Program-made: the position numbers and the translations under genes
Virus record (IMG/VR): IMGVR_UViG_3300020048_000045
Source: an uncultured virus (IMG/VR IMGVR_UViG_3300020048_000045)
Taxonomy: Duplodnaviria > Heunggongvirae > Uroviricota > Caudoviricetes
Strand: one strand, 5' to 3'
Length of the DNA stretch: 59,522 bases
Notes under the pieces: generated by a model
Told to the model about the DNA's origin: nothing
Database searches by the model: none
The model's input: the letters and a program-made list of their open reading frames with translations, nothing else
In this document: in pieces, positions 14,010 through 16,014 of the stretch
How the letters are laid out: each line of letters begins with the position of its first letter
How positions within the stretch are numbered: the stretch's first letter is position 1

Positions 14010-14178
14010 GCGAAATATCTAATCCATGTAAGAATGAGATGAGCGATGTGATGTCCCAATGTCCCCATGATCAAACCAAGAAGACATGAGAGAAAAATCG
14101 TTTCATATACATTGTAATGCTTTTCTGAAAAATTGTGTTTATTCATGTTTTATGATTTAAAGATTATAAGGGAGGTTG

Positions 14179-14251
14179 AGCCAGTAGTAGGATTCGAACC
14201 CACGACATACTGAATACAAATCAGCCATTCTACCATCTGAATTATACTGGC
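14179..14251 (-). tRNA. tRNA-Thr(UGU)
   Basis: Cloverleaf: GCCAGTA/TACTGGC acceptor, anticodon arm GCTGA-TTTGTAT-TCAGT, GTGGG-TTCGAAT-CCTAC T-arm. Confidence 0.92.
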
Positions 14252-14255
14252 ATAG

Positions 14256-14328
14256 TAACGCTGGCACGATTCGAACATGCGACCCAGGCTTATGCGATGC
14301 CCGTACTCTACCACTGAGCTACAGCGTT
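14256..14328 (-). tRNA. tRNA-like RNA with 9-nt non-canonical anticodon loop
   Basis: AACGCTG/CAGCGTT-A acceptor, intact D and T arms, anticodon stem CGGGC/GCCTG enclosing ATCGCATAA. Confidence 0.75.
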
Positions 14329-14332
14329 GTGT

Positions 14333-14474
14333 AATCCCCTTTAACGCAGGGGATCAGTTTCGTGCTTACGCAGCCAGTCTAACTGGTTGTAAAGCAAGTG
14401 TTCTTGTTTTGCCTGTTATGGCTTGATGCTTCTCTTACTATCTGCTTCATCGCCTGTCAAAACCAGTCACCCCC
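14333..14474 (-). ncRNA. ssrA: tmRNA coding piece (5' tRNA-like half plus tag reading frame) of a permuted ssrA
   Basis: Starts GGGGGTGACTGGTTTTGACAGGCG; ATAACA then tag frame 14413-14366 = GKTRTLALQPVRLAA*; terminal hairpin GATCCCCT/AGGGGATT. Confidence 0.9.
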
Positions 14475-14544
14475 TTATAAGGTTTAGGATACAGCAGTCA
14501 ATCTCATCTGTATCCTCTAACTTCAACAATTAATTGAACTGAAG

Positions 14545-14562
14545 TGGAGGTGAGGGGAGTCG
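14545..14562 (-). ncRNA. ssrA: tmRNA acceptor piece, exon 2 (3' T-arm and acceptor strand)
   Basis: CGACTCCCCTCACCTCCA; CACCTCC pairs with GGGGGTG giving G3-U70 and discriminator A. Confidence 0.9.
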
Positions 14563-14970
14563 CTATCCCTCTATTTGGAAGAATCTCATAACAAGAGTAT
14601 TTCTCTCTTGTTGTTCCTCATCTGTATACTTACCATTTCTTTTTGTCTTGGCTTGTATAAGATTGTAGGTTTCGATTCTGTGCTTCTTTTTAGGATGGAT
14701 GCTCATCAGCTTATTAGCAACTTTTAATCCACTTTGATAAGAATATTTAAGCTCAAAGGAGACTCCATGATGTTCTTTAAGTTTATCCTTTTTAGAGATA
14801 AAACCTTTAACACCTATGTCAATAAGAATAAACTTCTGGATTTCTTCAAGTATTGTCCTCTCATTGTTATGAAAACTTACCTGAATAGTCTTGTTCTTAC
14901 CCTTATTGTTACTAATTGCTGTGACACTTCCATCTGCGTCAAAGAAACCTGTGATATAATCCCAATTCAT
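14563..14970 (-). CDS. Single-motif LAGLIDADG homing endonuclease (135 aa)
   Basis: MNWDYITGFFDADGSV; located after P7/P9 inside the intron. Confidence 0.88.
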   Translation of the reverse strand: MNWDYITGFFDADGSVTAISNNKGKNKTIQVSFHNNERTILEEIQKFILIDIGVKGFISKKDKLKEHHGVSFELKYSYQSGLKVANKLMSIHPKKKHRIETYNLIQAKTKRNGKYTDEEQQERNTLVMRFFQIEG

Positions 14971-14987
14971 AGCTTTACAGTTTATTG

Positions 14988-15019
14988 TAAAGATAGGGGA
15001 AATATACATCACCTCCAAA
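14988..15019 (-). promoter_or_regulatory. Bacteroidota-type promoter inside the intron, upstream of the endonuclease
   Basis: TTTG-N20-TATCTTTA, 17 nt upstream of the ATG at 14970. Confidence 0.65.
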
Positions 15020-15228
15020 TATATTCTACAATTTCTTGTAGGATTGGACTATATCATCACCTGTTCTAGGTGTTGGATGCTGTAGGCTCACCGTAGTGTC
15101 CTTAGTCTCTGAACCTTCCTTGATCTTCCCCAAGGCTTGGCTGCTGATTACCTTATCTTCCCAGACTTAGGGTTCCAGCAATTCATCCAATTTTTAATTA
15201 TACATCCCTGTATAATGGGTCCAACTCG

Positions 15229-15262
15229 AACCCCTGTCCAAACGACTGCCTATAATCGTCAA
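15229..15262 (-). ncRNA. ssrA: tmRNA acceptor piece, exon 1 (5' end approximate)
   Basis: GTCGTTTGGACAGGGGTT; GTCGTTTG pairs with CAGGCGAT of the coding piece (helix 2). Confidence 0.85.
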
Positions 15263-15272
15263 CAAAACATCG

Positions 15273-15351
15273 TAACGCTAAATGGATTCGAACCACTGAC
15301 CCAGGCTAATGTTTGGCTGTGCCTGTACTCTACCAACTGAGTTATAGCGTT
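15273..15351 (-). tRNA. tRNA-like RNA with 14-nt non-canonical anticodon loop
   Basis: AACGCTA/TAGCGTT-A acceptor, D arm, CAGGC/GCCTG stem enclosing ACAGCCAAACATTA, AGTGG-TTCGAAT-CCATT T-arm. Confidence 0.75.
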
Positions 15352-15359
15352 ATATACCC

Positions 15360-15822
15360 TCCTCTCAAGCTATAATAAATAGCGGTGTCAGATTTGGGTT
15401 ATCTCTGTCTGTTCCAGAGTGTCAAAGAATAACAAATAATCAAATGATTAGCACCCTCTTGTCTTACTACACCAGCCCTTTATCAAAAAGGTTGAGGTTC
15501 TTATGTTAACTCTGGTTCATAATATCTGTTATAATAAGAGTAGGGTCACGATGATTTAGGTTGGCTCACCTTAAGGGTTAGTACTCTCATATCATCTTGC
15601 TTGAGACTCATTCGTGTTGTGATGTTTGTGGTCAGGGCTGTGTACGTTAGCCTCAAAGACACTTCTTAACACCTTCTAATCATGCACCCTTTCTCAAGGA
15701 GCAACACGTTACGACTTTCATCGTACATCTTTATGCGAATTGAAGGGAAGTTGTTGCCAACTGCATGCATTTCTGCATCTGCCACGACTTATTCACATCA
15801 GGGTCACTGTTTAGCCTGTTTA
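15360..15822 (-). ncRNA. Candidate large structured ncRNA (unassigned)
   Basis: No ORF of 60 aa or more; four GNRA-capped hairpins on the minus strand and further stems. Confidence 0.6.
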
Positions 15823-15828
15823 ATTTAA

Positions 15829-16010
15829 AAACTACCTGTCCACTTACTAAGTGTGGAATATATGGAATAGGAAATACCCACTGCTCCTATTTTCAAGAGT
15901 CATCCGACTCTTAGGTCTATCAATATCTTATCGCAAACAAACATCCTTCTTAGCAAGGATTATCGAACGCTTAAAGCAGATTCAACTGTTTGCATTTCAG
16001 CAGGCAGTTT
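15829..16010 (-). ncRNA. Candidate ~180-nt multi-stem ncRNA (unassigned)
   Basis: Closing helix AAACTGCCTG/CAGGTAGTTT enclosing at least four hairpins. Confidence 0.55.
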
Positions 16011-16014
16011 AAAA

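Follow-up and report, generated by a model that had tools for sequence, protein, structure and literature searches.

Two tRNA-shaped RNAs with enlarged anticodon loops bracket a predicted permuted, intron-split tmRNA in an uncultured phage: candidate processing handles

A 59,522-nucleotide (nt) stretch of DNA from an uncultured aquatic phage (IMGVR_UViG_3300020048_000045), hereafter the window, contains two paralogous genes for RNAs shaped like transfer RNAs (tRNAs). These RNAs, A and B, have anticodon loops of 14 and 9 nt, respectively, and bracket a two-piece transfer-messenger RNA (tmRNA). This arrangement, proposed in an earlier note on the same DNA, was confirmed by scores against the Rfam model RF00005 and by minimum-free-energy (MFE) folds. 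A, the tmRNA, the intron that it contains, B and a neighbouring tRNA-Thr are all encoded on the minus strand (Table 1). The analysis supports the view that A and B are under selection for the tRNA fold. Together with a third variant, C, retrieved from metagenome contigs, they keep the L-shaped body of a tRNA but very probably no longer read codons, their loops having grown 5' of the triplet that once was the anticodon. The reading favoured here, tentatively and with a probability of about 0.4, is that the three are tRNA-derived, CAU-type, non-decoding processing handles for the host enzymes that trim tRNAs.

Both A and B exceed the RF00005 gathering score of 29, with E-values calculated for the whole window of 1.7e-08 and 4.1e-08, respectively. 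Their MFE and centroid structures are cloverleaves in which the anticodon loop is unpaired. Alignment of the two sequences shows, as the earlier note described, a common AACGCU acceptor strand, A73, a C[A/G]GGC/GCCUG anticodon stem and a GGUC variable loop of 4 nt. The universal tertiary bases are present in both: U8, A14, G18G19, A21, C48, the G53-C61 pair and a UUCGAAU T-loop. None of the four tRNA-like 3' ends encodes CCA, and each has a single C after the discriminator.

A canonical anticodon loop has 7 nt, with U33 and a purine at position 37, to which the loops of A (14 nt), B (9 nt) and C (15 nt) do not conform. The CAU triplet was correctly reported to stand two bases before the 3' strand of the anticodon stem in A and B, and it has the same position in C; the loop ends that precede GCCUG read CAUUA in A and CAUAA in both B and C, and all three RNAs have A73. 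The loops were also said to lack U33. This is true of the base directly 5' of CAU, which is A or G, but not of the second loop base, which is U in B. Position 37 is U in A.

In the alignment of A and B, the 21 pairs of the cloverleaf are standard pairs in both copies (42 of 42 cells). Compensatory changes, likewise claimed before, are indeed present: five pairs differ on both sides, namely four of the five T-stem pairs and the acceptor pair 7:66, and two others differ on one side, from A-U to G.U. The other six of the seven acceptor pairs are identical. When the 3' partners were shifted by 1-3 columns, pairing fell to 24-38% of the cells. A shuffle control is weak with two sequences, 16 of 500 shuffles matching the observed value. 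The T stems of A, B and C are three different, fully paired versions in which G53-C61 is the sole constant pair, and the existence of this third homologue strengthens the case for selection on the fold. Such a combination of conserved stems with a loop of unconstrained length (9, 14 and 15 nt) suits an RNA whose body is required but which can do without decoding.

The rarity of such loops was estimated with a strict frame scan demanding seven of seven acceptor pairs, five of five T-stem pairs, the T-loop motif and a D arm, which returns 0.3 matches per shuffled window. It replaced the intron mode of ARAGORN, which is unspecific, many normal tRNAs being re-read with 'introns' of 2-7 nt. In the window, the scan found A, B and tRNA-Thr alone, with loops of 14, 9 and 7 nt. 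Among 94 distinct cloverleaf frames from 193 viral loci (2.45 Mb), 92 have a loop of 7 nt, one of 8 and one of 13. Enlarged loops in otherwise perfect cloverleaves are rare in this set (2 of 94). The 13-nt loop belongs to a cloverleaf without CAU (L031:14292-14371) that is clustered with tRNA-Thr(UGU) and tRNA-Asp, at a locus where no tmRNA was found. Another phage tRNA (L056:12570-12644), to which ARAGORN assigns a four-base anticodon in an 8-nt loop, has an acceptor strand that starts with AAC and is the top match to A among 170 phage tRNAs, which may be a coincidence.

Several other descriptions of A and B were considered and abandoned. Run on the window, ARAGORN reported tRNA-Thr(UGU) and, at B only, a 'tRNA-Cys(GCA)'; A was seen only if a 7-nt 'intron' was allowed. 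A U73 discriminator is part of tRNA-Cys identity. The tRNA-Cys assignment of B was rejected, as it involves a shifted anticodon stem with an A.A mismatch and the discriminator is A73. A protein-spliced intron of the bulge-helix-bulge type was rejected because the extra 2-8 loop bases are unpaired in all folds. The 5' half of A and the 3' half of B are not exons placed around a giant intron, since both copies are complete and the hybrid would carry A.C at 7:66. Base pairing between the loops and the tmRNA was dropped, as only 6-7-bp matches were spotted by eye.

Judged by its sequence and predicted fold, what lies between A and B is a genuine permuted tmRNA, interrupted by a group I intron. The two-piece tmRNA had been recognised before; the intron in its acceptor piece had gone unmentioned. 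The intron scores 100.3 bits with RF00028, for which 50 are needed, and ends in G. The 5' exon (...GGACAGGGGUU) ends at 15229, and its GGGUU pairs with GGACCC of the internal guide in P1, which puts U.G at the 5' splice site; GAGUUG of the guide pairs with CGACUC of the 3' exon in P10. The last base of the intron, at 14563, is also the G of the TAG stop codon of an open reading frame (ORF) for a LAGLIDADG homing endonuclease, whose PF14528 domain scores 31.6 bits (cut-off 22.5). Removal of 15228-14563 restores the T arm AGGGG-UUCGACU-CCCCU, with a 7-nt T-loop, followed by CACCUCC-A. The predicted fold of the spliced precursor contains this T arm, a GGGGGUG/CACCUCC acceptor stem with G3.U70, and a long P2 helix. 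When aligned with seven phage permuted tmRNAs, which reach 55-67 bits with the permuted tmRNA model RF04321, the spliced sequence is colinear with them. The genomic sequence itself scores 25.5 bits with this model at 14366-14596, below the gathering score of 47, because the intron splits the T arm. The tag frame ends with ...QPVRLAA-stop, the TAA codon being at 14366-14368, and its full translation (GKTRTLALQPVRLAA-stop) is near-identical to the tag of locus L112.

tmRNA genes exist in three forms according to the available part of PMC11915505, Table 3 of which lists standard, permuted, intron and two coding-sequence-less forms. In the same text, introns are placed in the T-psi-C loop only, at four subsites, of which the one after the second loop base ('position 3') was seen in Bacteroidia alone; LAGLIDADG genes are located after P9 or in P7.1, and 79 phage sequences are counted. 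The predicted gene in the window shares with permuted tmRNAs (PMC11915505, in the part available, and RF04321) the order of the pieces, G3.U70, the T arm and a tag ending in LAA-stop. With the intron form described in that part of the source it shares the T-psi-C-loop intron and the LAGLIDADG gene after P9. It differs from the known forms of Table 3 in combining permutation and intron in one phage gene, a combination that has no entry in that table. A related intron was found in a standard-form phage tmRNA (L097:1998-3030), with a core 81% identical over 228 aligned nt and inserted at the same T-loop site, between TT and CGACT; the same intron family thus occurs in standard and permuted phage tmRNA genes.

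Table 1. Coordinates in the window of the tRNA-like RNAs, the tmRNA and the features next to them
Feature	Position	Strand	Description	Evidence
tRNA-like A	15273..15351	-	full cloverleaf, A73, without encoded CCA	Rfam RF00005 52.7 bits, MFE fold
A anticodon loop	15307-15320	-	14 nt, ACAGCCAAACAUUA	
tRNA-like B	14256..14328	-	full cloverleaf, A73, without encoded CCA	Rfam RF00005 51.3 bits, MFE fold, pair counts
B anticodon loop	14290-14298	-	9 nt, AUCGCAUAA	
tmRNA acceptor piece, 5' exon	15229..15272	-	P2 strand, GGAC, AGGGG (T-stem 5' strand), T-loop bases UU	spliced fold, alignment
Group I intron	14563..15228	-	666 nt, splits the T-loop after UU and before CGACU	Rfam RF00028 100.3 bits at 15239-15025
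LAGLIDADG homing-endonuclease ORF	14563..15018	-	after P9; 151 aa from TTG, ATG at 14970	Pfam PF14528, PHROG endonuclease families
tmRNA acceptor piece, 3' exon	14544..14562	-	CGACU (rest of T-loop), CCCCU, CACCUCC acceptor strand, A73, C	
Intervening segment	14475..14543	-	two hairpins, between acceptor and coding pieces	
tmRNA coding piece	14329..14474	-	GGGGGUG acceptor strand, tag frame, terminal hairpin 14333-14355, then ACAC	RF04321 partial match
tRNA-Thr(UGU)	14178..14251	-	ordinary, 7-nt loop, 4 nt after B	ARAGORN; Rfam 65.7 bits at 14251-14179

The positions of A and B relative to the tmRNA are those to be expected of punctuation. The last base of A, 15273, directly adjoins the acceptor piece, instead of ending about 10 nt before it as had been stated, and the P2 helix begins 2 nt further in the fold of the in-silico spliced precursor. 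B starts 4 nt (ACAC) past the terminal hairpin of the coding piece, in agreement with the earlier description. Analogous layouts recur in other phages. The 19-base 5' end of the coding piece was found in 53 IMG/VR contigs, most of them with a tmRNA. A tRNA-Met(CAU) is present in 18 of the 53 loci recovered with this tmRNA 5' pattern, and permuted tmRNAs were found in 11 of the 20 loci run through Rfam. In L065 and L105, a tRNA-shaped frame of 111 nt ends about 6 nt before the acceptor piece of a permuted tmRNA, and an ordinary tRNA-Met(CAU) follows some 32 nt downstream of the tag stop; in L095, the acceptor piece is preceded, at a distance of 10 nt, by a tRNA-Ala.

Over-long tRNA-shaped frames (96-147 nt) within 800 nt of a tmRNA were detected in 10 of 53 tmRNA-bearing loci (9 of 50 distinct contigs). 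Like A and B, they have an acceptor stem, a T arm, a D arm and an aberrant anticodon region, and stand a few to a few hundred nt from the tmRNA. They differ in their length, in their Leu-like or irregular interiors and in a sequence unrelated to that of A and B, which are perfect class-I cloverleaves with the loop alone enlarged. The relatives of the window's DNA polymerase (best 80 of 236, 67-76% identity) indicate that the phage is a member of a family with genomes of about 115 kb. A tmRNA, always of the standard form, was found in 11 of these best 80 loci, so that its position and form vary in the family, and over-long frames stand beside the tmRNA in the family members L180, L224 and L226. 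Two groups of such frames were seen, GATTGAG... in L062, L090, L216, L226, L237 and L239, and AGTCAGG... in L090, L190 and L205. Both are 97-118 nt long and tRNA-Leu-like with irregular interiors, and several adjoin standard tmRNAs in the same polymerase family.

Variant C came from assemblies of metagenome runs. Contigs of a run that is probably the source sample (X1) reproduce positions 14233-15347 of the window without a difference, and a contig of a second sample of the same study (X2) covers 14289-14453, including the loop of B. A further X1 contig, of 99 nt, has exactly 30 bases in common with each flank and connects 14262 with 15318, with 39 different letters in between. Along this path, one tRNA-like gene, C, takes the place of 1055 nt comprising the 3' part of A, the tmRNA with its intron, and most of B. 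Its depth is 2.6 against 7.4, and the flanking contigs are unbranched over 1.2 and 5.5 kb. Encoded on the minus strand, C combines the 5' half of A with a loop of 15 nt (ACACCGCAAACAUAA) and with unchanged GCCUG and GGUC, and it folds as a cloverleaf. Its T arm, GUAGG-AUCGUAG-CCUAC, is fully paired, with T-loop bases 54 and 58 swapped (A..U); the acceptor strand and the tRNA-Thr downstream correspond to what is found after B. Most simply, C would be an allele in a near-identical genome that has neither tmRNA nor intron and one tRNA-like copy fewer, and the whole tmRNA cassette looks like a presence/absence polymorphism in what is apparently a single phage population. This polymorphism is provisional, as the evidence for C consists of low-depth contigs and not of reads.

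The earlier note had asked whether relatives have ordinary 7-nt loops; C, the sole relative found, has one of 15 nt. This loop and the third fully paired T stem indicate that the large loops are neither an assembly error nor the product of fresh decay. Two further runs, X3 and X4, contain no contig over A or B, which is uninformative in either direction. In X4, which is from a different study, contigs are 97-98% like the end of the homing-endonuclease gene, the 3' exon and the intervening segment, and there is also a coding piece whose tag region has diverged. The intron-bearing form thus occurs in more than one study. An X4 contig compared with positions 14361-14488 of the window matches at the ends of the coding piece, while the 67-nt middle, which is the tag region, is of unchanged length but divergent in sequence. 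The tag thus seems to change more quickly than the tRNA-like parts.

In the proposed processing scheme, A, the intron-split acceptor piece, the coding piece, B and tRNA-Thr would form one precursor from a single co-oriented stable-RNA operon. The genes lie close together in one orientation, and a search for promoters and terminators between them gave no signal above chance, which together suggest a common transcript. The intron would splice first and rebuild the T arm. RNase P would then cut at the 5' ends and an RNase Z-type enzyme after A73, and the neighbouring RNAs would thereby be released. The cut after A73 of A would create the 5' end of the acceptor piece, and RNase P acting at B would trim the coding piece 4 nt past its protective hairpin and free the leader of tRNA-Thr. 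At the two inner ends, the same enzymes would act on the tRNA-like domain of the tmRNA itself, as in the permuted tmRNAs of PMC11915505, where the available text has tRNA-processing enzymes cutting the transcript into two pieces. Upstream of A, 663 nt on the minus strand (15352-16014) contain no ORF of at least 40 aa on the gene strand and are mildly structured (z -1.87); they gave no Rfam match and no similarity to any fetched locus, and may hold the operon promoter or another RNA.

The CAU motif and the frequent presence of tRNA-Met(CAU) near phage tmRNAs suggest where the handles come from: A, B and C probably descend from a tRNA with a CAU anticodon, of the Met/Ile2 type. The canonical tRNA-Met/Ile2(CAU) encoded near phage tmRNAs resembles them in its cloverleaf, tertiary bases, A73, position of CAU and membership of a tRNA cluster. 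A, B and C differ from it in their loops of 14, 9 and 15 nt in place of 7, the lack of U 5' of CAU, U37 in A, and the 4-nt variable loop.

The suggestion that such elements are processing punctuation had been made in the earlier note for the two new ends created by permutation. The layouts of L065, L105 and L095 speak for punctuation. C stands without a tmRNA, so that the elements do not serve only to define permutation-made ends. Several observations weigh against processing handles more generally. RNase P and RNase Z require little beyond the acceptor and T arms of their substrates. Processing consequently leaves the near-identical D arm, anticodon stem, GGUC and CAU(A/U)A unexplained. In L065 and L105 an ordinary tRNA occupies the same place, so that enlarged loops are not required for punctuation, and the strict scan found no over-long tRNA-shaped frame in 43 of 53 tmRNA loci. 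C occurs with tRNA-Thr but without the tmRNA, which gives the element a reason to exist apart from the tmRNA. The covariation, as read from the alignments, comes from three sequences only.

Relatives that could extend this comparison were sought widely, and the outcome also counts against the favoured reading. No homologue of A, B or C was found in any collection searched (GenBank phages, IMG/VR, metagenomes, genomes and fetched loci). The GenBank phage collection gave matches to the group I intron core only. Three patterns built on A, B and C gave 0, 0 and 7 matches in IMG/VR, the 7 being chance matches in coding DNA, and a metagenome pattern retrieved 3 unrelated tRNA fragments. Two relaxed pattern scans of the genome collection gave 0 and then 50 matches, the latter by chance in GC-rich coding DNA, and no tRNA. 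The best matches among the 170 phage tRNAs are of mixed isotype, and no isotype can be assigned. The neighbouring VWA-like protein has no relative in IMG/VR, a 686-aa protein led to 60 loci, distant at 39-49% identity, none of which has a tmRNA or an A/B-like gene, and blastn found no A/B-like sequence in the best 80 DNA-polymerase loci. Full-text literature searches returned, as enlarged loops, 8-nt natural loops and engineered frameshift suppressors only, and nothing on tRNA look-alikes flanking phage tmRNAs.

The conserved parts left unexplained by processing and the occurrence of C without a tmRNA keep alive four other readings, involving decoys, decay, cassette arms and decoding. It is possible, though rather unlikely, that A, B and C are non-decoding mimics with a job of their own, acting as decoys or sponges for anticodon-loop nucleases or for CAU-reading enzymes (MetRS, IleRS/TilS), or as non-ribosomal chargeable donors; their position beside the tmRNA would then be incidental to membership of a tRNA cluster. 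Conservation of the acceptor stem, D arm, anticodon stem, GGUC and CAU(A/U)A, beside a freely varying T stem, extends from the structure to the sequence itself, a pattern that fits recognition by a protein that reads sequence. C, moreover, persists without the tmRNA, and a counter-defence role is known for phage tRNAs, which oppose tRNA-targeting defences according to the accessible parts of PMC10264068 and PMC11464382. The 5'-half identity may, however, stem from recombination and not from constraint. Beside the cluster, no gene for defence or counter-defence was recognised, and the 53 ORFs of the early region include no RNA ligase, SmpB or tRNA enzyme. The phage tRNAs that escape anticodon nucleases in PMC10264068 do resemble A, B and C in that phage anticodon loops depart from those of the host. 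Theirs are substitutions in tRNAs that still decode, whereas A, B and C carry between 2 and 8 additional bases; 'insertion' and 'decoy' are absent from the accessible text of that paper, where escape tRNAs are thus not described as loop-insertion forms. In a combined version, itself doubtful, A, B and C would be a lineage-specific class of selected, non-decoding mimics with loops of 9-15 nt, probably still chargeable in view of A73 and CAU, that titrate or decoy the readers of CAU loops (defence nucleases, MetRS, IleRS, TilS). Their conserved halves would also be recombination arms that make the intron-bearing two-piece tmRNA a swappable cassette, polymorphic in a single phage population.

Alternatively, A, B and C could be dead duplicates, former tRNA-Met/Ile genes broken by small insertions in the anticodon loop and heading for loss. 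The three different insertion lengths resemble uncorrected indels, A has U at position 37, U is missing immediately 5' of CAU in all copies, and with no homologue found elsewhere the family may be young and local. Decay should break stems. Yet all 21 pairs and the universal tertiary bases are kept in the three copies, even though four of the five T-stem pairs differ on both sides, and the enlargement of all three loops is hardly expected from independent recent accidents. Decay of this kind is held to be rather unlikely.

The chance appears small that the near-identical tRNA-like sequences are primarily homology arms by which the tmRNA-intron module recombines in and out of phage genomes, the loops being by-products. 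The 99-nt path in X1 does swap 1055 nt for one tRNA-like gene, and the tmRNA is variable in position and form in the DNA-polymerase family, as described above. C is not a simple recombinant of A and B, however, as its loop and T arm match neither. The variant without the cassette has the largest loop, and the extra loop bases were consequently rejected as scars of cassette insertion. The contigs, in place of reads, and their low depth also tell against such exchange.

Least likely of all, and very improbable, is that A, B and C still decode, either as frameshift or multi-base readers or once the extra loop bases have been removed from the RNA. CAU is at the canonical spacing from the 3' stem, and natural 8-nt loops can decode, as in the yeast mitochondrial tRNA-Thr1 described in the available portions of PMC3113583 and PMC7609411, a natural, selected tRNA with an enlarged loop; but that loop has one extra base and proven decoding, where A, B and C have 7, 2 and 8 extra bases and a length that varies among homologues. 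Loops of 9, 14 and 15 nt are far beyond those of any decoding tRNA found described in the full-text searches, the extra bases offer a splicing endonuclease no helix to act on, and the genes of the phage can be read in the standard code as long ORFs.

The tRNA genes of phages are commonly taken to serve as codon supplements or to replace tRNAs that host defences have destroyed. A tRNA body under selection whose codon-reading loop has been let go suggests instead that the tRNA shape itself is put to use, as a handle for host enzymes that would mature the ribosome-rescue RNA of the phage, or possibly as a decoy. tRNA-like elements with a role in processing are familiar from the punctuation model of mitochondrial transcripts, the t-elements of plant mitochondria and mascRNA-type 3' ends. 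By analogy, A and B would be tRNA-shaped, non-decoding modules at an RNA boundary, with ends set by RNase P and RNase Z; they differ from those elements in their complete anticodon stem, conserved CAU and flanking two-piece phage tmRNA, and their cleavage is putative. If correct, the proposal would provide a bacterial-virus counterpart of organellar tRNA punctuation and would explain how the outer ends of two-piece tmRNAs are made inside a phage operon. The locus adds a tmRNA that appears both permuted and intron-split, together with what looks like a natural polymorphism of the cassette, and makes the question experimentally approachable.

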